Positions 1-9,884 of a stretch of 9,884 nucleotides of DNA are shown piece by piece. The stretch is taken from NCBI GenBank assembly GCA_023136205.1, contig JAGLRQ010000134.1, forward strand, positions 1 through 9,884, written 5' to 3'. The notes below the pieces were generated by a model, which did no database searches, was not told the origin of the DNA, and saw nothing but the letters and a program-made list of their open reading frames with translations. Source of the DNA: Candidatus Auribacterota bacterium. GTDB taxonomy: Bacteria; Auribacterota; UBA6266. Made by a program: the position numbers and the translations under genes. Positions within the stretch are counted from its first letter, which is position 1. Each line of letters starts with the position of its first letter.

Positions 1-584
1 AGTATGCAATCAAATAACTGTCTTCTTCTGTAGAGTAACACGGTATAGATAATACCGGTTGCGATTGCCGCAGGCCATTCCCATAAATTATGACCCAGTG
101 TGAAGAGAATCACGCTTCCTATGAGCGAAAACATGGTAAATTTGCCGACAGGAACAGAATCAAAATTGTCAGGGTTTATAAGCAGCCTTATTACAAATGA
201 GCGCATAAAAAGTTCCTCGAAGAGCGGGACAACAAGAACAGCCCCGCCAAGGCGGAAAAATATTAAGAAAGCTGTTGTAAAGGGAGTATTCCTGATGGGG
301 TTATATCCTGTATCTGGTGGATGAAACATTTTGAAAGGCATATGTTCTGTAAGGCCTATCCATATAAAGAAAACTATAATTCCTGTTATGCAGGCTATCG
401 GGGAAAACGAGAATTTTATCTCTTTATAAATCTTCCGCCAGTAGAGGAGAAGAATAAATGTTACAGTTGTTTTAAACGGATAGGTTAAATAAGCATAGTC
501 CCCGAAAAATTGTGATGTTGACCCGATTAAAATAAATATGAAGTACGGGGCAATATATGGGATAATGGCTTTCCAATTTTTCAT
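1..584 (-). CDS. CPBP-family intramembrane glutamic endopeptidase (CAAX-protease-like), partial; C-terminus runs off the window start
   Basis: Absent from the ORF track because it has no in-window stop. My translation of the minus strand from the ATG (complement of 582-584) is open for 194 codons to position 1: MKNWKAIIPYIAPYFIFILIG...VVPLFEELFMRSFVIRLL...VILFTLGHNLWEWPAAIATGIIY... It has several hydrophobic helices plus the two CPBP hallmarks: EExxxR (EELFMR, complement of about 201-218) and FxxxH (FTLGH). No clear SD lies upstream, so the start is provisional (an in-frame TTG lies at complement of 618-620). Confidence 0.75.
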   Translation of the reverse strand, partial: MKNWKAIIPYIAPYFIFILIGSTSQFFGDYAYLTYPFKTTVTFILLLYWRKIYKEIKFSFSPIACITGIIVFFIWIGLTEHMPFKMFHPPDTGYNPIRNTPFTTAFLIFFRLGGAVLVVPLFEELFMRSFVIRLLINPDNFDSVPVGKFTMFSLIGSVILFTLGHNLWEWPAAIATGIIYTVLLYRRRQLFDCI

Positions 585-651
585 TAAGAAAAAGATAGCA
601 GAAAAACAGCTAAAAATCAAAAAAGATAAAATAATATTCTGCAGGATTGTT

Positions 652-2235
652 ATGCTTGATATTCTGATTAAAGGCGCGAGAGTTTTTGACGGGGAGATTT
701 TTCTTGTCGGAGATATATGTGTGGGAGTAAGAGAGGGGAAGATTATCAGCGTTGGGAAAACCTGTGGGAAAGCGAAAAGAGTAATTGATGCCGCGGGGCT
801 TGTTCTGGCACCGGGTTTTATAGATATCCATTCACATTCCGAATTTACGGTTTTATTTAATCCTGAATCTGAGAGTAAAATTTGTCAGGGCGTGACAACT
901 GAACTTGTCGCGAACTGCGGGTTTGGGCCGTGGCCATGTGAAAATGCTGCCGGTAAACGCCTTAAAGAGAGGCTGGAATGTTTCGGACTTAAACTGGAAT
1001 GGAATTCACTTCAGGGGTATTTTGATTTTCTCGCGAAAGTTCGGCCTTCGGTAAATATAGGTGTTTTTATCGGACACGGCAATGTAAGAGCTTCAGTTAT
1101 TGGCTATGAGAACAGGGCTCCCGATGAGAAAGAAATGAAACATATGCGCGGTTTGGTTGAAGGGGGGATGAAACAGGGAGCTTTTGGACTTTCAACCGGC
1201 CTTATGTATCCTCCTGGGGTTTATGCGAAAAAGCCGGAATTGATAGAATGCGCGAAGGCAGCATCTTCTTTTGGGGGGATTTATGTAACTCATATGAGGA
1301 ATGAATCCGGTGACATCATTAATTCAATTCAAGAAGCGCTAAAAATAGGATATGAGGCAAACATAAAAGTACAAATTTCTCATTTGAAAGTAGCGGGAAG
1401 ACAGAACTGGGATAAAATAGACGAGGTCTTTTCTCTTATAGAAGGTGCAAGAAAAAGCGGTATGGATGTTACATGTGACAGATATCCTTATTCCGCCTCT
1501 TTTACGAGCCTTGATATTGTCCTTCCCTCATGGGTATATGAGGGAGGGAATGCTGAAGAGATAAAAAGGTTAAGAAATCCTGAGACCAGGAGAAAACTGG
1601 CTGAGCAGCTTAGAAAAGAAAAAAGTGACGAATATTGGGATAGAGTTAAGATTGCGTCGGTATCCACAGATAAAAACAAACCCTTTGAAGGAAAGTCTGT
1701 TCTGGAAATTGCTAACTTTAAAAATAGCAATCCAGTGGAAGTGTTTTTTGACCTTCTTCTTGAAGAATCTCTTGGTGTTTATGCTATTTTTTTTAATATG
1801 AGTGAAAAAAACCTTTTTAAAATTCTCGGGAAAACCTATTGCATGGTAGGTTCTGACGCAGCATCCAGGGTTGATTATGGTAAGCTTAGGCAATCAATGG
1901 TCCATCCCCGCGCGTACGGAACTTTTCCCCGCGCGGCAGGAAGATTTGTAAGAGATGGTAAATTGAATTTAGAAGACGCGCTATATAAAATGACAGGGCA
2001 GCCATCAAGAAAGCTGAAGCTGAAAGATAGAGGTTTTATCAGGAAAGGATTGGCGGCGGATTTAGTCCTTTTTGATCCCGGCAGCTTGGCAGATACGGCA
2101 ACATTCGATTGTCCTCACAAGTATCCTGGCGGGATAAAGCATGTTATTATTAATGGCACTGTGACTGTCGAAGAAGGTGAGCATACCGGAGCTCGGGCAG
2201 GAACGGTTGTGAAATCAATAAGCAGAAAACAATAA
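652..2235 (+). CDS. N-acyl-D-amino-acid deacylase (D-aminoacylase) family amidohydrolase
   Basis: The track ORF is 538..2235; I trim it to ATG 652 (Met39). Three reasons: 538-584 would overlap the divergent CPBP gene; AGGA at 643-646 sits 5 nt upstream of ATG 652; and the product then starts MLDILIKGARVFDG, a typical N-terminus for this family. Family motifs seen: GFIDIHSHSE (HxH metal site), GIYVTHMRNES, QISHLKVAG, CDRYPY, GSDAAS..VHPRAYGTFPR, ADLVLFDP. Confidence 0.85.
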   Translation: MLDILIKGARVFDGEIFLVGDICVGVREGKIISVGKTCGKAKRVIDAAGLVLAPGFIDIHSHSEFTVLFNPESESKICQGVTTELVANCGFGPWPCENAAGKRLKERLECFGLKLEWNSLQGYFDFLAKVRPSVNIGVFIGHGNVRASVIGYENRAPDEKEMKHMRGLVEGGMKQGAFGLSTGLMYPPGVYAKKPELIECAKAASSFGGIYVTHMRNESGDIINSIQEALKIGYEANIKVQISHLKVAGRQNWDKIDEVFSLIEGARKSGMDVTCDRYPYSASFTSLDIVLPSWVYEGGNAEEIKRLRNPETRRKLAEQLRKEKSDEYWDRVKIASVSTDKNKPFEGKSVLEIANFKNSNPVEVFFDLLLEESLGVYAIFFNMSEKNLFKILGKTYCMVGSDAASRVDYGKLRQSMVHPRAYGTFPRAAGRFVRDGKLNLEDALYKMTGQPSRKLKLKDRGFIRKGLAADLVLFDPGSLADTATFDCPHKYPGGIKHVIINGTVTVEEGEHTGARAGTVVKSISRKQ

Positions 2236-2263
2236 ATAAGTTAAACATAATGGATGTTATTTT

Positions 2264-3766
2264 ATGAAATCAAAAACTTTTATTTTTATTATAATAATTA
2301 ATTTTGTATTTTTAACAGGGTGTGCCCAAAAAAGAACCGATTACAAAACACTGTATTTACGCCTGCCTGAGCAACCGTCGACGCTTGATCCAGCCCTTAC
2401 AGTAGATGTTTATTCCGGAGGGATACTTTCTAAAATCTATTCCACCCTTGTGAAATTTGATGAAAATCTCGCGATTCTTCCCGATGCAGCGGAAAAATGG
2501 GCAGTTTCCCGGGATGGCAGGAACTACGTTTTTTATATTGATGAAAATTTAAGGTTTAGTGATGGAACATCTGTTACTTCGCGTGATGTCAAAAAGTCTT
2601 TCCAGAGAATACTGTCTCCTGGTTCCCTCTCATCGAGAAAATGGATGTTTGAGAATGTCAGGGGAGCAGTAGCTTTTATGGACGGGAGGGAAAAGGATGT
2701 AAGCGGGTTTAAAATTATTGGTGAAAAAACCTTAGGGATAGAATTGATAAAACCTTTTGCCCCTTTTTTAGGCCTTCTTGCTATGCCTAATGCCGCTATT
2801 GTAAAAGAAGGCGTCAATAGTCTTCTGGGGTCGGGGGCTTTTAAACTGGAAAAATGGAAAAGAGGAGAGAAAATACTGCTGTCAAAAAACAGGGAGTATT
2901 TAAAGGGAAACTCTTTTCTTGAGAACATATGCTATCGTATTATACCTCAGGATTTTACAGCGCTTTCTGAATTCAAACAGGGGAATTTGGATATTTTGGG
3001 GCTTTCTAATTCTATGGTTGATTCTTTTAAAGCTGTCGAATACGAAAAAAATGTTTACTCCAAAATAGGGCTTAATATTTATTACATAGGCTTTAATTGT
3101 CAAAGAGAGCCTTTCAATAATATTGCTGTAAGGCGGGCTCTTGTTTCAACAATTGATAAAGAAAGAATAGTAAATACAATCCTTGCCTCGAGGGCTGAAC
3201 CGGCGTTTTCTCCTGTTCCTCCCGTTCTTCTGGATGTGGAGCATTATGAAGTAGATAAAGATGTGGTGTTTCCGAAGGAAAGGGTTCTTAAACTACTTAT
3301 AAATACTAGCGATGAAATGCAGGCAATCGCGGAGGTATGCCAGCATTTCTGGAAGGAAAAAGATGTTAAAGTTGATATTATTCAGAGAGAGTGGAATGGT
3401 TTTAAAGAAGCTTTAAATAACGGCGAATTTGATATGTTTATTCTTTCGTGGTGGGCGGATTATCCTGATGCCGAAAATTTTTTATATCCCGTGTTTTATT
3501 CCGGCAACTGGGGCTCAAAGGGAAACAGAGCCAGGTACTCAAACAAAAATTTTGATAAAATTATTTTAGAGGCTCGCTCAGAGCTGGATTTGAACAAAAG
3601 AGAAAATTTATACAGACAGGCTGTGAAAATTGTTGTAAGAGACTGTCCTTGGGCTTTTCTTTGGCATAAAAAGGATTATTCTGTTATTCAACCGTGGGTA
3701 GTAAATTTTAAAATTTATCCATTGTATTATTCTGACAAGGGTGTGGATGTAAAGCTGGAGTACTAG
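2264..3766 (+). CDS. ABC transporter substrate-binding lipoprotein, family 5 (peptide/nickel, DppA/OppA-like)
   Basis: 500-aa ORF with a signal peptide and lipobox (FVFLTGC, Cys20). Family-5 SBP-like features: STLDPALT near the N-terminus, YYIGFNC, SWWADYPDAENFLYPVF. It is followed directly by two permease genes. Confidence 0.85.
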   Translation: MKSKTFIFIIIINFVFLTGCAQKRTDYKTLYLRLPEQPSTLDPALTVDVYSGGILSKIYSTLVKFDENLAILPDAAEKWAVSRDGRNYVFYIDENLRFSDGTSVTSRDVKKSFQRILSPGSLSSRKWMFENVRGAVAFMDGREKDVSGFKIIGEKTLGIELIKPFAPFLGLLAMPNAAIVKEGVNSLLGSGAFKLEKWKRGEKILLSKNREYLKGNSFLENICYRIIPQDFTALSEFKQGNLDILGLSNSMVDSFKAVEYEKNVYSKIGLNIYYIGFNCQREPFNNIAVRRALVSTIDKERIVNTILASRAEPAFSPVPPVLLDVEHYEVDKDVVFPKERVLKLLINTSDEMQAIAEVCQHFWKEKDVKVDIIQREWNGFKEALNNGEFDMFILSWWADYPDAENFLYPVFYSGNWGSKGNRARYSNKNFDKIILEARSELDLNKRENLYRQAVKIVVRDCPWAFLWHKKDYSVIQPWVVNFKIYPLYYSDKGVDVKLEY

Positions 3767-4701
3767 TGAATAAACAAAAAGTCTTTGTGATAAAAAGATG
3801 TCTTCTTGCCATACCCACCATAATTGGTGTTGTAGTCCTTATTTTTGTTCTTACGCGGTTTGTTCCTGGAGACCCTGTTAATAGTTTTGTCGGTAGAAGA
3901 GCTGATGCCCGAATAATTGAAAAGGTAAGAGAAGAATTCGGACTTGATAAACCTTTTTTTGTGCAGTTCTTTTATTATGTTAAATCTCTTGCCAGGGGCG
4001 ATATGGGATATTCCTATGTATCGGGACAGCCGGTGAGTAGTATGATTGCTAAAAGATTCCCGAATACACTCAAACTTGCCTGTACAGCTATGGTACTTGC
4101 GGTTTTGTCAGGGATTGCCATGGGCTTTTTATCTGTTCTAAAACCCGGAGGCTTTATTGATAGAGCCTGTATGTTTCTTTCTGTTTCAGGAATATCAATT
4201 CCGGTTTTCTGGTTTGGACTCATACTTATAATTGTTTTTTCAAATATGCTCGGATGGTTTCCGGCCTCAGGGATGGGGGGCCCCTCTTATATTATTCTTC
4301 CCGCCCTGACACTCGCGACGCGCTCTTCCGCTTATATAGCTAGGATAACCAGATCCAGTGTTTTAGAAGTCCTTGGGGAAAATTTTGTTGTTACCGCAAG
4401 GGCAAAAGGATTAAGCCGGACAAAAGTTTTAATGAAGCACGTTCTTAAAAATGCGCTTATTCCTGTAGTAACCTTAATAGGAATTGATCTTGGGAGTTAC
4501 CTGAACGGTTCTGTGCTGACAGAATCTATTTTTGGTTGGAATGGCATAGGCAATCTTGCTTTAAATGGAATAATGAACAGGGATTACCCTGTAATAATGG
4601 GGACGGTTCTTTTTGGATCGGTAATTTTTATTTTCGCTAATATTCTCGTGGATGTTTCATATTCGATTTTCAATCCGAGGATAAGCTATGAGAGAAAATA
4701 A
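3766..4701 (+). CDS. ABC transporter permease, DppB/OppB-type
   Basis: The GTG start overlaps the SBP stop by 1 nt (TAGTG), with GGAG (3757-3760) 5 nt upstream. The N-terminus RCLLAIPTIIGVVVLIFVLTRFVPGDP and the EAA-type loop TARAKGLSRTKVLMKHVLKNALIP are typical of this permease class. Multiple TM helices. Confidence 0.88.
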   Translation: MNKQKVFVIKRCLLAIPTIIGVVVLIFVLTRFVPGDPVNSFVGRRADARIIEKVREEFGLDKPFFVQFFYYVKSLARGDMGYSYVSGQPVSSMIAKRFPNTLKLACTAMVLAVLSGIAMGFLSVLKPGGFIDRACMFLSVSGISIPVFWFGLILIIVFSNMLGWFPASGMGGPSYIILPALTLATRSSAYIARITRSSVLEVLGENFVVTARAKGLSRTKVLMKHVLKNALIPVVTLIGIDLGSYLNGSVLTESIFGWNGIGNLALNGIMNRDYPVIMGTVLFGSVIFIFANILVDVSYSIFNPRISYERK

Positions 4702-4752
4702 TTACGAAAAAACTAATTCTATCTGTGTCACCAAAACAGGTTTTTAGCTCTT

Positions 4753-5568
4753 ATGAATATAATTAAACAGCACAAATCAGTTAAAATTATAGCAGGCATA
4801 CTTGCTGCCATATTTTTATCCGCGGCATTTGCTCCTTTGATTACCCCGCATGATCCTGTTCACATCAACCTTGATGATGTGAAACAGCCTCCCTCTTTGA
4901 AATACCCTTTTGGAACTGATACAAAAGGGAGATGTGTTTTTAGCAGGGTTGTTTATGGCGCAAGGGTGTCTCTTCTTGTAGGACTTACAGCAACAGTCTG
5001 TGCTTTTTTCTTTGGAGTATTTTTGGGGTCTGTTGCCGGATATTTCGGGGGATTAATTGATAAAATAGTAACTTTTCTTGTTGATATTACCCTTTCTGTT
5101 CCAGGCCTTCTCCTGGCAATTGCTATAACGGTGGTATTTGAACCTGGCATTGTTACGGTGCTTATAGCATTGTGTACTATAGGCTGGGCAAGTTTTGCCC
5201 GTCTTGCCCGCTCAAGCATCATATCCATAAAAGAAAAAGATTTTGTAGTGTCGGCGATTGCGATGGGCAGTTCAAGAAGGAGGGTCCTGATAAGGCACCT
5301 TATACCCAATATAATTCCCCTGATGCTTGTCGCGGCAACTCTCAGGATTGGAGGATTTATCCTCGGGGAAGCTTCATTGTCTTTTCTCGGACTGGGTGTG
5401 CGTCCGCCCCAACCTACATGGGGAGGGATGATTTCTTCAAGTGTAAACTATATCCAGTCTGCCCCCTGGATAGCAATATTTCCGGGTGTTGCTATTGCAA
5501 TTACGATTTTGTGCTTTAATTTGCTGGGGGATATTGTGAGAGACTATTGTGACCCTAAGATGAAGTAA
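4753..5568 (+). CDS. ABC transporter permease, DppC/OppC-type
   Basis: N-terminal AAFAPLITPHDP and the EAA-type loop SAIAMGSSRRRVLIRHLIPNIIP are typical of the second permease of Dpp/Opp-type importers. Multiple TM helices. Confidence 0.88.
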   Translation: MNIIKQHKSVKIIAGILAAIFLSAAFAPLITPHDPVHINLDDVKQPPSLKYPFGTDTKGRCVFSRVVYGARVSLLVGLTATVCAFFFGVFLGSVAGYFGGLIDKIVTFLVDITLSVPGLLLAIAITVVFEPGIVTVLIALCTIGWASFARLARSSIISIKEKDFVVSAIAMGSSRRRVLIRHLIPNIIPLMLVAATLRIGGFILGEASLSFLGLGVRPPQPTWGGMISSSVNYIQSAPWIAIFPGVAIAITILCFNLLGDIVRDYCDPKMK

Positions 5569-5653
5569 AAAGCCGGAAATGCCCGCATCTGCGGCGTTAT
5601 TGCTCCCTCAGAAATCCTCGATGTACTATAAAGTACGCCTGCGTCATTCTTCG

Positions 5654-5692
5654 GTCGCAATGCCTTGCATATACAGGCATTTGCGGCTTTTT
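5654..5692 (+). terminator. Rho-independent terminator candidate for the deacylase/ABC cluster
   Basis: The stem GGTCGCAATGCCT (5654-5665) pairs with AGGCATT(T)GCGGC (5675-5687). That is about 12 bp with one bulged T and one G-U pair. The loop is 9 nt (TGCATATAC) and is followed immediately by TTTTT (5688-5692), with a second TTTTT at 5696-5700. Confidence 0.6.
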
Positions 5693-5848
5693 GGATTTTT
5701 CTGGGATAACACTTTTTTGCAATCTCTGCATCACAAACCCGATACATCCCAAGCACATACAACATCACTTTACTACAGCTAACATCAGTTATCACCACAC
5801 ATAAAGTAACGTTTTTTGCTCGATTATGTGGTGGCGCTAAAGAAAATG

Positions 5849-5896
5849 GGGAAAGTCCCAAGCAAGCGAAGCGAGCGCGTGGACTGTCCCTTTTTT
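5849..5896. terminator. Hairpin plus T-run; possible bidirectional terminator
   Basis: GGGAAAGTCC (5849-5858) pairs with GGACTGTCCC (5881-5890), 10 bp with one A/G mismatch. TTTTTT (5891-5896) follows on the plus strand and ATTTTCT follows on the minus strand. The 22-nt loop is unusually large, which lowers confidence. Confidence 0.4.
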
Positions 5897-5901
5897 CTTG
5901 A

Positions 5902-6120
5902 ACGGAGTTAACACTATATGGACCTTTAGTATTTATAAGCTCTTATATCCAAAACCAAGTTAGAATACTCCACGAAACTGAAAAGGCTGTTTTGGTTGAA
6001 AATGTAGAAAAGATCTGGATTCCAAAATCCCAAATACAAAAGATAAGGTTGGGGAATAATATTTTTGAGGTTTATGTTAGAAAAGGGATGTTTAGGTGGT
6101 GGGATAGTGTGTCGCTGTAA
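5902..6120 (+). pseudogene. Degenerate or frameshifted small ORF with a phage/plasmid-like small-protein motif
   Basis: The frame is open for 72 codons after TGA 5899-5901 and ends at TAA 6118-6120: TELTLYGPLVFISSYIQNQVRILHETEKAVLVENVEKIWIPKSQIQKIRLGNNIFEVYVRKGMFRWWDSVSL. It has no canonical start apart from TTG 5992 and a late ATG. An ATG at 5918, with GGAG (5904-5907) 10 nt upstream, is out of frame by one base and stops after 3 codons (ATG GAC CTT TAG). That pattern fits a frameshifted gene or a sequencing error. Confidence 0.35.
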
Positions 6121-6134
6121 CTTTTAAAATGGCC

Positions 6135-6365
6135 CTATATTTTTTTTGCAAATTTTTTCTTTGCTTCTCTCCTGACTATGTTAAGCTCCTTCTTGAGACG
6201 ATTAACTTGTTCCTCGATTTCTCCCTCACAACAACAGTCTGGTGTTAAAAATATGTTGCCCTCTTTATCTCTTGTATGAGTCTTTACATAAATTTTCGCA
6301 GCATTGCAATCAAGAAGCGCGCCTTTTGAAGGTTTATGAAACATTAACTCGATTGAATAGGTCAT
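6135..6365 (-). CDS. Small hypothetical protein (76 aa) with a CCC triplet and a basic helical tail
   Basis: A consensus SD precedes the start: complement of 6371-6376 is AGGAGG, 5 nt upstream of the ATG (complement of 6363-6365). The composition looks protein-like: a predicted beta-rich N-terminal half, then EGEIEEQVNRLKKELNIVRREAKKKFAKKI (amphipathic, basic helix). Cysteines are C20 and C44-C45-C46 (complement of 6228-6236). Confidence 0.7.
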   Translation of the reverse strand: MTYSIELMFHKPSKGALLDCNAAKIYVKTHTRDKEGNIFLTPDCCCEGEIEEQVNRLKKELNIVRREAKKKFAKKI

Positions 6366-6707
6366 TGTTACCTCCTAATTTTATGTTCGTATAAGTTCTC
6401 ACCAAAAATTCACAGCTTCACTTTTTTATAACTAATTTTCGAACCAAGCAATAAAAAAGGCCCTAAGTTTACAGAACATACTCCTGTAAAATCAGCGCCT
6501 ATCGCCGGCATCCTGATTAAAAATAGTTTATCCACCAAAAAACTAAAGAAATTATTGCACATAAATTTCTTTTTGTCAATAGGAGTTTTTATTTTTTTCG
6601 ACGACAAAATCCTATAATTATTCATTCGTTATGAAAAAAAGTACCAATAATTCTAATACAATATAAGCTCTTAACGGGATTCAACTTACAATTTTTTAGA
6701 GCGTTAT

Positions 6708-6736
6708 CTGAAAAATTATCATAAGCAATCTATAAT
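6708..6736 (+). promoter_or_regulatory. Sigma-70-like promoter candidate for the 6850 gene
   Basis: CTGAAA (6708-6713, 4/6 match to TTGACA), a 17-nt spacer, then a perfect TATAAT (6731-6736). It lies about 115 nt upstream of ATG 6850. This is a pattern match only, in AT-rich DNA. Confidence 0.3.
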
Positions 6737-6849
6737 GAGAAAGGGGCGCAAGCTTATGGGTTGGGTTTCGAGGAAAGTCGCTGGTGATAAAAGCTGTTGA
6801 AGAAAACCCCAGATTATTTTATCATGAATAAAAATCGAGGGTAGCTCCG

Positions 6850-7950
6850 ATGTCAGAAGAAAAAAACAACGTCAAAGTACTTTTTTCCATTAAAAAAATA
6901 TGTAACTATCTGTTCATCCTTATTGATTGGGTTATAGAAAAGCGCAAATTTTTCTTTATCCTCATCTCAATTCTATTTTTAATTCTGTCCTATATGTTTG
7001 TACTTCAATATTCCTATTCTAATAGAAGCTTGGGTTTTCTATTTGCAACTTTATTACCTATTATATACCTTTTTTATTTTGCAATCAAAAAAGAAAGAGC
7101 AATATCAAGTGTAGAAGGGGTTCTTATACTTTTTTTAACAATTTTAATAGGGGTTGGACCCACATATCTAAAAGGAGAAACTAAAGCTTGGAACGAGCTA
7201 ATAAAAAGTAAAATTAAACGGATGAGTGAAGGAGGCGCTGGGAAAAAAGGTATTTATGGTATTTTTGACACAGATTCTGCGGCAACACCAGGGATTATGG
7301 TGGGAACAATCACCCCAAAGATAGACAAAGAAGCAGACTCTAAAACTAATATAGAAATAACAGAAAGTGTTATACAGTCAATAGTATTACAGGAAGCAAC
7401 AAACAATCTTATTAGAAACGGCAATTTTCAAATTCCTTTAGCGAATAACTTAAGTCACTGGGGTCATGGATACTACTCGGATAGAATAAGGAAACAATAT
7501 CCGGAAACTAGTATAATTTGGATTAATTTTTTAAACGCAGGCATAAATATTTCAAGAGAAGAAACAGAAATTGGAAATGCTCTTAAAATAGTCCGTAAAT
7601 CTCCAAGGGAAGACCATGTAGTTGGAATAATGGAACAATCCATAAAAGTTGTCCCAGGGGAATACAATCTTTCATTTATGGCAAAGGCAAAAGATTTAGA
7701 AGAACGTGCCTTACAAATTCGCACAACAAATGACTGGAGAAGAACTCAGACAAATGGATATGTAAGAGGATATGATTTTGAAGCAACCGGAACTTTTGGA
7801 TGGCAGTCTTTCTTTGAAAATCTCACAATTGCTGAATCTGGAGAGATAACTTTCACCATAGTATCTACGGGAAAAGGAACTTTATATTTAAGAGATATCT
7901 CTCTTATTAAAATTTCTGACCTAGTTGTAGAAAACGATAGTTCAGAATAA
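6850..7950 (+). CDS. Membrane-anchored protein with a C-terminal CBM_4_9-like / galactose-binding-like beta-sandwich domain
   Basis: GAGGG lies 8-12 nt upstream of the ATG. Three to four hydrophobic helices fall within aa 34-105 (FFFILISILFLILSYMFVL, LGFLFATLLPIIYLFYFAI, VEGVLILFLTILIGVGPTYL). A linker follows, then, from aa 185 (nt 7402), NLIRNGNFQIPL..LSHWG...VVPGEYNLSFMAKA...GWQSFFENLTI...GTLYLRDISLI. That is the N-x-hydrophobic-x-NG-x-F ... W ... G-x-Y-x-hydrophobic-S-F ... hydrophobic-x-hydrophobic-D-D/x-hydrophobic-S-hydrophobic pattern I associate with CBM4/9-type jelly rolls. Confidence 0.65.
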   Translation: MSEEKNNVKVLFSIKKICNYLFILIDWVIEKRKFFFILISILFLILSYMFVLQYSYSNRSLGFLFATLLPIIYLFYFAIKKERAISSVEGVLILFLTILIGVGPTYLKGETKAWNELIKSKIKRMSEGGAGKKGIYGIFDTDSAATPGIMVGTITPKIDKEADSKTNIEITESVIQSIVLQEATNNLIRNGNFQIPLANNLSHWGHGYYSDRIRKQYPETSIIWINFLNAGINISREETEIGNALKIVRKSPREDHVVGIMEQSIKVVPGEYNLSFMAKAKDLEERALQIRTTNDWRRTQTNGYVRGYDFEATGTFGWQSFFENLTIAESGEITFTIVSTGKGTLYLRDISLIKISDLVVENDSSE

Positions 7951-7971
7951 TAAAAATGGTCTCAATATACC

Positions 7972-7995
7972 GAAAAGGGGTCTGGCCCCCTTTTC
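7972..7995. terminator. Short A-tract/T-tract hairpin; weak, possibly bidirectional terminator or attenuator
   Basis: GAAAAGGGG (7972-7980) pairs perfectly with CCCCTTTTC (7987-7995) across a 6-nt loop (TCTGGC). The GC core is only 4 bp and the U-run lies within the 3-prime arm, so some read-through into 8028 is likely. Confidence 0.45.
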
Positions 7996-8027
7996 CTAAA
8001 AGTTAAAATTCGGGAGCTATTTTAATA

Positions 8028-8837
8028 ATGGAAAAGCCCAAGTTAGATATAATTGGTGATTGGTCAGAATATAAACTGCAAATTTTGAAGAAGTATGCAG
8101 AAGCTTACGTTAAAATTGTTAAATCACGCTTTAAGTATATATATATAGATGCGTTTGCGGGTGCTGGGATGCATATATCAAAGACAACGGGAGATATTGT
8201 GTCGGGTAGCCCTCTAAATGCGCTGAATATTGAATTTCCGTTCGATGAATATCATTTTATTGATTTGGATGGAGTTAAAGTAGAACTATTGAAAGATTTA
8301 AGCAAAGATAAGTCTAGTGTGTATATTTATCAAGGTGATTGTAATGAGATTTTACTGGATAAAGTATTTCCAAGAGTAAAATATGAAGATTATCGGAGGG
8401 GTTTGTGCCTGCTAGACCCTTATGGGTTACACTTAAATTGGAGCGTTATAAAAAAAGCTGGTGAGATGAAGTCAGTAGAAATATTTTTAAACTTTCCAAT
8501 TATGGATATAAATATGAATGCGATAAAACGGAATCCTGAGAAAGTTACTTCTGAGCAGGCTATGAGAATGACTAGATATTGGGGAGATGAAAGTTGGAAA
8601 GATGTTGCGTATTCTAGCAATGGAATGCTTTTTGAAGATATGAAGGGGAAAACGGATAATGAGACATTGGCAGAGGCTTTTAGAAAGAGATTGATCAATG
8701 ATGCAGGATTTAAAATTGTCCCTAAGCCAATTGCGCTGAAAAACACAACAGGTGCTACCCTATATTATTTGTATTTTGCATCACAGGCTAATGTCGCAGG
8801 TAAAATTGTTGGAGACATTTTTAAAAGTCACAATTAA
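8028..8837 (+). CDS. tcmP: TcmP-like protein (three-Cys-motif partner protein family) with a Rossmann-fold methyltransferase-like motif order
   Basis: The N-terminus DWSEYKLQILKKYAEAYVKIV...YIYIDAFAGAGMH......SGSPLNAL matches my memory of the TcmP family signature (W..K...L..Y...... hydrophobic-YIDxFAGxG ... GSPhydrophobic-xAL). The family is defined by its pairing with a three-Cys protein, and such a protein follows here. MTase-like motifs appear in order: motif I DAFAGAG (from nt 8148), an acidic strand end HFIDLD, GDCNEIL, and a motif IV-like LLDPYG (D130 at nt 8415). GGGAG lies 12 nt upstream of the ATG. Confidence 0.7.
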   Translation: MEKPKLDIIGDWSEYKLQILKKYAEAYVKIVKSRFKYIYIDAFAGAGMHISKTTGDIVSGSPLNALNIEFPFDEYHFIDLDGVKVELLKDLSKDKSSVYIYQGDCNEILLDKVFPRVKYEDYRRGLCLLDPYGLHLNWSVIKKAGEMKSVEIFLNFPIMDINMNAIKRNPEKVTSEQAMRMTRYWGDESWKDVAYSSNGMLFEDMKGKTDNETLAEAFRKRLINDAGFKIVPKPIALKNTTGATLYYLYFASQANVAGKIVGDIFKSHN

Positions 8838-9671
8838 ATGACAATGAAAACCATAGCAAAAAATAATTTTGATAATAGTAAAACAAATTGTGTTTTTGGT
8901 ACATACGAATGGGCTAATGAAACAGTTAATATTATAGATGGCTGTAAGCATGATTGTAAATATTGCTATAGCAAAGCAATGGCAATTAGATTTAAGAGAA
9001 AAACACCTGCAAATTGGAAAGAAGAAAAAATCAGGAATAATGGTTCGTTAAACTATTCAAAAAAGGTTGATGGAACTATAATGTTTCCGTCTTCTCATGA
9101 TATTCATCCGGAGCATTTGAGTTATCATATAGATTTTATTGAGAGATTATTAGAGCACGGAAACAGGCTTTTAATAGTTACAAAACCTCATTTTGATTCT
9201 ATAAAAACAATTTGTGAGCAATTTATTGATTATAGAGACAAAATCCTATTTCGATTTACTATTGGCTCTATCAATTCAGATATACTGAAATTTTGGGAGC
9301 CAGGAGCTCCTGATTTCAATGAGAGATTAAAGGTTTTAAAATATGCATTCAATAAAAACTTTCAAACCAGTGTTTCTTGTGAGCCAATGCTGGATAATAA
9401 CATAGTGGGTGTTATTGATGCTGTTTATCCTTTTATTACGGATTCAATATGGTTGGGAAAAGCGAATTATCTAATTAAGAGATTAAAATTTAATAAAGCG
9501 GACGATCATTTAACAATGAAAAAAGCATTGCAATTATTAAATTGGCAGTCAGATGATAATATCCAAGATTTATATGATATATATAAAGATGATGCTAAGA
9601 TCAAGTGGAAAGAAAGTATAAAAAGTATTGTGGGAATAAAAATACCTATTCAAAGCGGATTAGACATATAA
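8838..9671 (+). CDS. Small radical SAM enzyme (three-Cys partner; DUF5131/Gp37-Gp68-like N-terminus, SplB/COG1533-like core)
   Basis: The ATG abuts the tcmP stop (TAAATG at 8835-8840), indicating translational coupling. A canonical CX3CX2C motif, GCKHDCKYCY (Cys36/40/43), lies at nt 8943-8966. Downstream elements resemble photolyase-like radical SAM cores: LLIVTKP, FRFTIGSINSDILKFWEPGAPDFNERLKVLKYAF, TSVSCEPML. An alternative start is Met3 (8844). Confidence 0.75.
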   Translation: MTMKTIAKNNFDNSKTNCVFGTYEWANETVNIIDGCKHDCKYCYSKAMAIRFKRKTPANWKEEKIRNNGSLNYSKKVDGTIMFPSSHDIHPEHLSYHIDFIERLLEHGNRLLIVTKPHFDSIKTICEQFIDYRDKILFRFTIGSINSDILKFWEPGAPDFNERLKVLKYAFNKNFQTSVSCEPMLDNNIVGVIDAVYPFITDSIWLGKANYLIKRLKFNKADDHLTMKKALQLLNWQSDDNIQDLYDIYKDDAKIKWKESIKSIVGIKIPIQSGLDI

Positions 9672-9779
9672 AGACCATTTTCAATATATTGCTTTTAAAA
9701 GATTGGATATCTAATGCCAGTCTGAATTAAGTGCGTTAGTCAGTAAAAGTATTTACGATTCTATTTCGGGAAAGATTTT

Positions 9780-9884
9780 TTAAACCGTTTTATCCAAAGA
9801 TTTATCATTCTGCAAATATAGTGTCTGTGAAGGAAACGCAAACTCTATACTTTCTTTTTCAAAAGACTCTTTTATTTGGAAGTT
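9780..9884 (-). CDS. C-terminal fragment of a mechanosensitive (MscS-family) channel-like protein; the rest lies beyond the window end
   Basis: My minus-strand translation from 9884 gives NFQIKESFEKESIEFAFPSQTLYLQNDKSLDKTV, ending at a stop (complement of 9780-9782). The pattern (E/K)xxI(E)hydrophobic-xFPxQThydrophobic-xhydrophobic resembles the conserved MscS C-terminal GIEIPFPQR-hydrophobic-V-x-hydrophobic segment. Only 34 codons are visible. Confidence 0.45.
   Translation of the reverse strand, partial: NFQIKESFEKESIEFAFPSQTLYLQNDKSLDKTV

Follow-up and report, generated by a model that had tools for sequence, protein, structure and literature searches.

Genes of the TcmP family (TIGR04474) and genes of the DUF5131 family (PF07505) form a very widespread pair, which PADLOC lists as defence candidate PDC-M41 and for which no function has been published. 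The PDC candidates were chosen by guilt-by-embedding in BREX, DISARM or type I restriction-modification (R-M) loci (bioRxiv 10.1101/2024.01.29.577857). Here we describe a variant of this pair in a stretch of 9,884 nucleotides from Candidatus Auribacterota bacterium (GenBank assembly GCA_023136205.1, contig JAGLRQ010000134.1, positions 1 to 9,884, forward strand), called the window in the following, in which a bona fide TcmP gene is joined to a gene for a radical S-adenosylmethionine (SAM) protein. Judged by its conserved residues, TcmP is most probably a SAM-binding, catalytically active N-methyltransferase in the RlmJ-like branch of the class I enzymes.

RlmJ (also YhiR or DUF519; PF04378; PDB 4BLU, 6QDX, 7P8Q and 2OO3) is the m6A2030 methyltransferase of 23S rRNA, and its active site resembles that of DNA m6A methyltransferases (PMC3814359). 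The adenine of SAM is stacked by H42 and bound by D143, the ribose is bound by E118, and the amino-acid moiety is bound by D164 and, through a hydrogen bond, by S100; D164 and K18 are essential for catalysis, and the target base is stacked by W195 of motif VI, not by Y167 of the DPPY motif IV (PMC3814359). Shorter forms of motif IV are found in Trm1 (tRNA m2,2G26), where a D-P-F motif (Asp138, Phe140) serves to methylate G26 at its exocyclic amine, and in MnmC2, an active N-methyltransferase on a base amino group with the motif D-A-F (PMC3527978).

A literature search on TcmP, DUF5131, PF07505, TIGR04474, PDC-M41, PDC-M30 and GMT-wHTH found no functional study; TcmP is mentioned as prophage cargo and, in S. 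meliloti, as a neighbour of the Hna defence gene. As the family has a name already, the pair does not represent a new kind of system. What is apparently unpublished is its RlmJ-like assignment, together with the predictions for single residues and the partner variant with a canonical cluster motif.

Family assignment, predicted fold and relation to RlmJ

TcmP of the window (269 aa, ATG start, TAA stop; Table 1) matches the NCBIfam profile TIGR04474 with 189.9 bits against a cutoff of 53; the match extends from residue 11 to residue 268 and takes in profile positions 1-262 out of 263. The PADLOC model PDC-M41A is matched with 230.8 bits (E 5e-69), and no Pfam family, PF04378 (RlmJ) included, is matched. 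A single search returned more than 7,685 TcmP proteins, and an exhaustive search at E <= 0.001 gave 3,281 clusters at 50% identity.

The AlphaFold2 (AF2) model of TcmP has a mean predicted local distance difference test score (pLDDT) of 96.5 and a predicted template modelling score (pTM) of 0.92. When the model is compared with the PDB by Foldseek, the top 13 matches all belong to RlmJ/DUF519 (E 7.5e-8, template modelling (TM) score 0.53-0.58), followed by generic class I methyltransferases; 116 matches reach E <= 0.001, and among the matches listed all are methyltransferases. A search of BFVD returns generic methyltransferases only (TM score <= 0.44). The modelled fold is that of a class I (Rossmann-like) SAM-dependent methyltransferase that keeps motif I and the acid D79. 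The class I fold and the amino-methyltransferase order of motifs, both proposed in a first-pass annotation of the sequence, are supported by the model, by Foldseek and by conservation, and the nearest relative is RlmJ/DUF519 instead of the RsmD suggested there.

The relation to RlmJ is also found at the level of profiles. The TcmP profile retrieves RlmJ from the PDB at E 2.3e-4, and PF04378 is matched by 13 of 89 TcmP members, weakly, with a best E of 6e-7. Alignment of TcmP to E. coli RlmJ with hhalign gives a probability of 90.7%, or 96% (E 4.7e-9, 215 columns) when a small alignment of RlmJ sequences is used under permissive settings; the homologue search for RlmJ gave only close relatives (83-99% identity), and its profile barely improved. 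Identity between the two proteins is about 12-14% in the structural alignment. A single-sequence search of the PDB returned 5LTE (E 0.45), which was rejected as a chance match, and RlmJ emerged only by profile search.

In the hhalign alignment D41 and F43 of TcmP are paired with D40 and H42 of RlmJ, S61 with S100, D79 with E118, D104 with D143, D130-P131 with D164-P165 and N155-F156-P157 with W195-Y196-P197. Because the SAM-contact residues and the catalytic Asp of RlmJ map to conserved positions of TcmP, a complete and conserved SAM site together with the catalytic Asp-Pro is predicted for the latter. Both proteins have the class I fold, an N-terminal helix before strand 1, the motif order X-I-II-III-IV-VI (motif X by the place of its helix), a D-x-(F/H)-A-G-x-G loop, the serine of GSP, the acid of motif II and the Asp of motif III; motif IV contains Asp-Pro in both, and motif VI an aromatic residue before Pro. 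They differ in the helical subdomain of RlmJ (about 45 residues, ~52-95), which aligns to a gap where TcmP has a short beta-hairpin (residues 48-59), in the Y4/H6 tail of RlmJ, which TcmP lacks, in D-P-Y against D-P-P-Y, and in an insert (residues 158-230) that is TcmP's own. Unlike RlmJ, TcmP is mobile and patchily distributed, and its gene has a radical SAM or DUF5131 gene as its constant companion.

Conserved motifs and the single-proline motif IV

Conservation was counted in 93 full-length representatives of the 50%-identity clusters, and motif IV in 146 representatives. The series DAFAGAG, FIDLD, GDCNEIL and LLDPYG, noticed in this order in the first-pass annotation, lies at the coordinates in Table 1; all four motifs, the DxFxGxG and DPYG positions included, are conserved across the family. 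In motif I, D41 is present in 82 sequences (E in 6 more), F43 in 84 (Y in 6 more), G45 in 76 and G47 in 85; position 79 of motif II is acidic in 92; D104 and N106 of motif III are kept in 87 (N in 5 more) and 84, respectively. Motif IV has D130 in 90, P131 in 91, Y132 in 78 (F in 3 more) and G133 in 62. W12 and K16 of the N-terminal helix, each conserved in 87 of the 93, stand among further near-invariant positions with Y23, Y39, F72, L88, R124, W138, G186, W190, R221 and L222; the protein of the window retains every near-invariant position of the family.

The larger set of 146 contains DPYG in 88 cases, DPYx in 39 and DP[F/W]x in 5, i.e. D-P-aromatic in 132, and about 14 sequences have no aromatic residue; DPPY is found in none of the 146, and the window protein has no (D/N/S)PP(Y/F/W) tetrapeptide at this site. 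As these forms dominate and none of the representatives has DPPY, the single-proline D-P-aromatic motif IV is a signature of the whole TcmP family. The alignment with RlmJ places its single gap in this region at P166 (LLDP-YG against LIDPPYE), and DPYG is for this reason better read as DPPY minus the second proline. The single proline seen in the first pass was correct; its description as a replaced proline with a shifted aromatic residue gives way to a deletion of the second proline that is family-wide, not a local change.

The same annotation took DPYG as a possible sign of an altered substrate or of a non-methylating role. The activity of Trm1 with D-P-F and of MnmC2 with D-A-F, together with the motif IV tyrosine of RlmJ that does not stack the base, speaks against the latter; by analogy the shortened motif is compatible with catalysis, no sign of lost activity and no argument for a non-methylating function. 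Trm1 and MnmC2 serve as precedents for the shortened motif IV only and do not place TcmP in their families: the Trm1 family PF02005 is matched neither by TcmP of the window nor by any of 89 relatives. Distant TcmP-like proteins have FIDPTDC (loci L052, L054 and L055), VDPFGYKG (L053) or FLDPFGPDN (L057) at motif IV. To judge from these sequences, the core that stays constant is Asp-Pro, and some TcmP-like clades seem to dispense with the aromatic residue.

The C-terminal half consists, according to the model and the RlmJ alignment, of strand 5 with motif VI (150-157), the insert 158-230, strands 6-7 (235-252) and a terminal helix. The last 130 aa, which had tentatively been taken for a target-recognition part, do not form a recognition module of their own, since core strands 5-7, motif VI and the terminal helix lie in this half and only residues ~158-230 are family-specific. 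This insert of about 70 mostly helical residues, with the conserved elements W185-G186-x3-W190 and R221-L222, would be the best candidate for a substrate-binding lid.

Table 1. Coordinates of the TcmP gene, its radical SAM partner and associated features in the window
Feature	Position	Strand	Basis
TcmP coding sequence, predicted RlmJ-like class I SAM-dependent methyltransferase fold	8028..8837	+	TIGR04474, PDC-M41A, AF2, Foldseek
W12-x3-K16, N-terminal helix at the place of the RlmJ motif X helix	8061..8075	+	conservation and model
Motif I DAFAGAG, predicted SAM-binding glycine loop, residues 41-47	8148..8168	+	aligned to RlmJ 40-DTHAGAG-46
G60-S61-P62	8205..8213	+	aligned to RlmJ G99-S100-P101
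Motif II FIDLD, residues 77-81	8256..8270	+	D79 = RlmJ E118
Motif III GDCNEIL, residues 103-109	8334..8354	+	D104 = RlmJ D143
Motif IV LLDPYG, residues 128-133	8409..8426	+	D130 = catalytic D164 of RlmJ DPPY; one Pro fewer
Motif VI N155-F156-P157, end of strand 5	8490..8498	+	aligned to RlmJ W195-Y196-P197
Residues 158-230, mostly helical and family-specific, inserted after strand 5 and before strand 6	8499..8717	+	conservation, AF2, hhalign
Strands 6-7 and C-terminal helix, completing the Rossmann-like sheet	8718..8834	+	AF2, hhalign
Partner radical SAM gene, 277 aa	8838..9671	+	PF04055, AF2, hhalign
GCKHDCKYCY, canonical CX3CX2C cluster motif	8940..8969	+	aligned to DUF5131 GCTKISPGCKxCY, 3-residue gap
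Terminator-like hairpin between upstream 366-aa open reading frame and TcmP	7977..7989	+	consensus scan only
Inverted repeat, left arm, bracketing the cassette	7947..7968	.	repeat search
Inverted repeat, right arm, overlapping the radical SAM stop codon	9666..9687	.	repeat search

The radical SAM partner and the conserved pairing

The TAA stop codon of TcmP abuts the ATG start codon of the partner gene, and the terminator-like hairpin ahead of TcmP would set the two genes apart as a separate transcription unit. The cysteines C36-x3-C40-x2-C43 of the partner are invariant in 54 homologues. The protein passes PF04055 (36.2 bits, cutoff 29.5) and remains under the cutoff of PF07505/DUF5131 (22.6 against 28.9 bits), which it matches over residues 24-62 only; the match to PDC-M41B is weak (24.5 bits, E 3.7e-6, residues 23-105). 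Aligned by hhalign with the DUF5131 partners of other TcmPs (probability 91.4%, E 9e-7), it shows a gap of three residues exactly in the Cys loop, GCK---HDCKYCY against GCTKISPGCKHCY, the DUF5131 motif being CX6CX2C and that of the partner CX3CX2C. By this alignment the partner is homologous to DUF5131 and carries a canonical radical SAM motif.

The AF2 model of the partner (pLDDT 88.8) has the radical SAM partial-barrel (partial TIM-barrel) fold. Its top fold matches are all radical SAM enzymes, with SkfB, spore photoproduct lyase (SPL), SuiB, DesII, PFL-AE and viperin about equal. "DNA repair photolyase" is the name that homologues of the partner bear in the sources, and weak profile matches to SPL and COG1533 of this name are found (PF20903 with E 0.0083, TIGR04070, and the Rv2578c and PA0069 families), all far under the family cutoffs; the TM score to the SPL structure 4FHF is 0.47.

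Among 38 genome loci of TcmP from many phyla a DUF5131 gene is adjacent in 32 and a PF04055 radical SAM gene in three (the window, L005 and L030), which makes 35 of 38 with one or the other, whichever gene comes first; in Verrucomicrobia the gene order is flipped and adjacency kept. Conversely, all five sampled homologues of the radical SAM gene of the window have a TcmP-like gene immediately upstream. The window shares the two-gene architecture of the TcmP/DUF5131 pair (PDC-M41) and differs from it in a partner that passes PF04055, not PF07505, and whose closest relatives are usually paired with more divergent TcmP-like proteins. It appears to join a canonical TcmP, the usual partner of which is DUF5131, with a radical SAM clade usually found beside divergent TcmP-like proteins. 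This fits a modular exchange of partners and a functional equivalence of both radical SAM types; interchangeability of the DUF5131 (CX6CX2C) and canonical CX3CX2C clades as partners of TcmP would in turn support real radical SAM chemistry in DUF5131. Judged by its recurrence in unrelated neighbourhoods, the TcmP-radical SAM pair looks like a self-contained mobile two-gene cassette, which at times lies within R-M loci.

Two apparent Rosetta-stone fusions were rejected. P0184, a TcmP fragment with the N-terminus of DUF5131, is probably a frameshift or read-through, and P0246, with a glycosyltransferase domain, is probably unrelated.

Proposed mechanism and alternative explanations

We favour, with a probability of roughly 0.55, an active N-methyltransferase TcmP that works with an obligate radical SAM partner in the two-step modification of a nucleic-acid base, the two genes travelling as a mobile cassette. 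SAM would be bound by the DAFAGAG of motif I, the GSP serine, D79 and D104, and the amino group of the substrate would be presented to D130 and P131 of the D-P-Y motif IV, in a pocket probably built from F156 of motif VI and the helical insert 158-230. TcmP and the radical SAM enzyme translated with it would form an obligate pair, the target of which is most likely a base in a nucleic acid, with DNA preferred to RNA. One order that seems plausible has N-methylation first and radical chemistry, on or beside the methylated position, second. Such an order is known from wybutosine, where the N-methyltransferase Trm5 is followed by the radical SAM enzyme TYW1, which acts on the new N-methyl group of the same base. 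Trm5 and TYW1 are encoded by unlinked housekeeping genes and belong to other families, and the analogy to the TcmP cassette is mechanistic only. The leaning towards a nucleic-acid substrate stems from the winged-helix domain of a relative, from R-M-type neighbours at some loci, from the embedding by which the PDC candidates were chosen, and from the "DNA repair photolyase" name and weak SPL matches of the partner. One step further, the cassette could install an undescribed hypermodified base in DNA or RNA, TcmP N-methylating an exocyclic amine and the radical SAM enzyme elaborating or cross-linking the methyl group, as a self/non-self or an anti-restriction or anti-phage mark carried by a mobile 1.7-kb unit; this extension is speculative, and we regard it as unlikely. 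In practical terms, the residue map based on RlmJ turns an anonymous "partner protein" into a putative enzyme with testable mutants (D130A, D79A, D104A and K16A) and a candidate substrate class.

Several observations weigh against the proposal of a methylating, base-modifying pair. Y4 and H6 of RlmJ motif X have no recognisable counterpart in TcmP, and hhalign is not reliable in this region, where the pairing of TcmP K16 with RlmJ K18 is only plausible by position. In more distant TcmP-like proteins paired with the radical SAM clade of the window, the aromatic residue is missing (FIDPTDC) or the Asp of motif III is replaced by Asn; the pair may therefore be able to function without the aromatic residue, and perhaps even without methyl transfer. 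The SPL match of the partner fold is no better than those to SkfB, SuiB, PFL-AE and viperin and gives no clue to the substrate; the structural argument "SPL-like, therefore DNA" was dropped, as the fold search did not favour SPL. No defence gene adjoins the pair in the window, the neighbours being a peptide ABC transporter, a membrane protein and an MscS channel, and in the literature searched TcmP occurs as an annotation label only. Few sequenced phages have a relative of TcmP (5 records, 23-24% identical), and a single-protein scan of viral contigs found none at the sensitivity used.

The same divergent partners, among them the DPTD forms and the one GNSN at motif III in sister clades with the same radical SAM family, would suit a TcmP that binds SAM or substrate without methylating, the alternative raised in the first-pass annotation; it would target the radical SAM enzyme, present the base to it or regulate it in dependence on SAM. 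These partners suggest that the pocket can drift; the obligate pairing with radical SAM or DUF5131 and the missing Y4/H6 tail point the same way. We think this improbable, as every SAM-contact residue of RlmJ and its catalytic Asp have conserved counterparts in TcmP proper, D130 and P131 are kept in 90 and 91 of 93 representatives, and neither the single proline, with which Trm1 is active, nor the motif IV tyrosine, unused for stacking in RlmJ, indicates a loss of function. The substrate of the pair might also be a free nucleotide or another small molecule, e.g. an antiviral or signalling nucleotide as for viperin. Such a role would agree with the listing as a candidate defence system, with a cassette that has no nuclease or other effector, and with the viperins among the fold matches of the partner, yet the TM score to viperin, about 0.47, is no better than that to many other radical SAM enzymes, RlmJ, the nearest relative, has a base in RNA as its methylation target and an active site similar to that of DNA m6A methyltransferases, and one TcmP-like relative bears a winged-helix domain; we rate it as decidedly unlikely.

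RlmJ as the closest solved structure and PF04378 as the closest Pfam family could also mean that TcmP is a divergent housekeeping orthologue of RlmJ (rRNA m6A) next to an unrelated radical SAM gene. This explanation is contradicted by the patchy distribution across many phyla and unrelated contexts of the cassette, by the missing helical subdomain, and by the conserved pairing, with 35 of 38 loci adjacent to radical SAM or DUF5131 and stop and start codons that abut; the window protein has, moreover, no PF04378 match, and we hold this explanation to be very improbable.

Genomic context and further observations

The pair of the window lies between opp transporter genes and mscS. Its counterpart in L005 is found near smpB and a tRNA-Leu; a tmRNA integration site was sought near this smpB and not found, only the tRNA-Leu being present. 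At the DNA level the window resembles L005 from the TcmP start codon onwards. In L056 (4001-5649) the cassette stands between the gcvP genes and lplA/lipA/lpdA and breaks an otherwise coherent glycine-cleavage/lipoate cluster; its TcmP and radical SAM proteins are 67% and 66% identical to those of the window.

Positions 6135-9671 of the window form an islet of low GC content (0.29-0.355, against 0.39-0.43 in the flanks), which holds a 76-aa open reading frame (ORF) on the minus strand, a 366-aa membrane protein, TcmP and the radical SAM gene. Its composition suggests horizontal acquisition. The 366-aa ORF (6850-7950, + strand) has N-terminal transmembrane-like segments and, in its C-terminal part, a weak match to a BT4411-family hyaluronic-acid-binding model (E 5e-4). 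It is present beside the cassette in L001-L004 and probably no part of the system, since L005 and L056 do not have it there.

The inverted repeat that nearly exactly brackets the cassette is imperfect, with 18 of 22 positions complementary, which none of 300 flank shuffles reaches. The L005 cassette (72%-related) is bracketed by a different inverted repeat (7740-7763 and 9656-9679; 19 of 22, z 5.2), and no bracketing repeat is found in 28 DUF5131-type loci or in L052-L057. The repeat does not generalise beyond the window and L005 and was discarded as a part of the mechanism; it could be a terminal-repeat remnant or serve in 5'/3' pairing of the mRNA. Another inverted repeat of 26 nucleotides (5567-5592 and 5667-5692, 85% complementary, 74-nucleotide loop) starts at the stop codon of the OppC-like permease, and the region 5569-6134 contains no convincing ORF.

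Some TcmP loci lie beside type I R-M, ResIII, McrBC or DpdF genes. L053 (2891-3985) encodes a TcmP-like protein of the PDC-M30A type with a C-terminal "GMT-like wHTH" domain (Pfam PF22560); Mrr_cat, ThiF and a UPF0020/N6_N4 methylase are encoded nearby. The TcmP-like proteins of L052, L054, L055 and L057 (302-316 aa) have a Cys-rich N-terminal extension, e.g. CKKQNCEFEKKNGNCH, which TcmP proper does not have and which is perhaps a zinc ribbon. Ahead of the pair in L057 lies a 70-aa HTH_3 gene. Ophion, a defence system with a radical SAM protein, has another architecture and was rejected as a match. Gordonia phage BaxterFox (L050) has no annotated DUF5131 gene around its distant TcmP-like gene gp42 (23% identity), which directly follows the immunity repressor and lies ahead of the integrase, a position typical of prophage-expressed genes.

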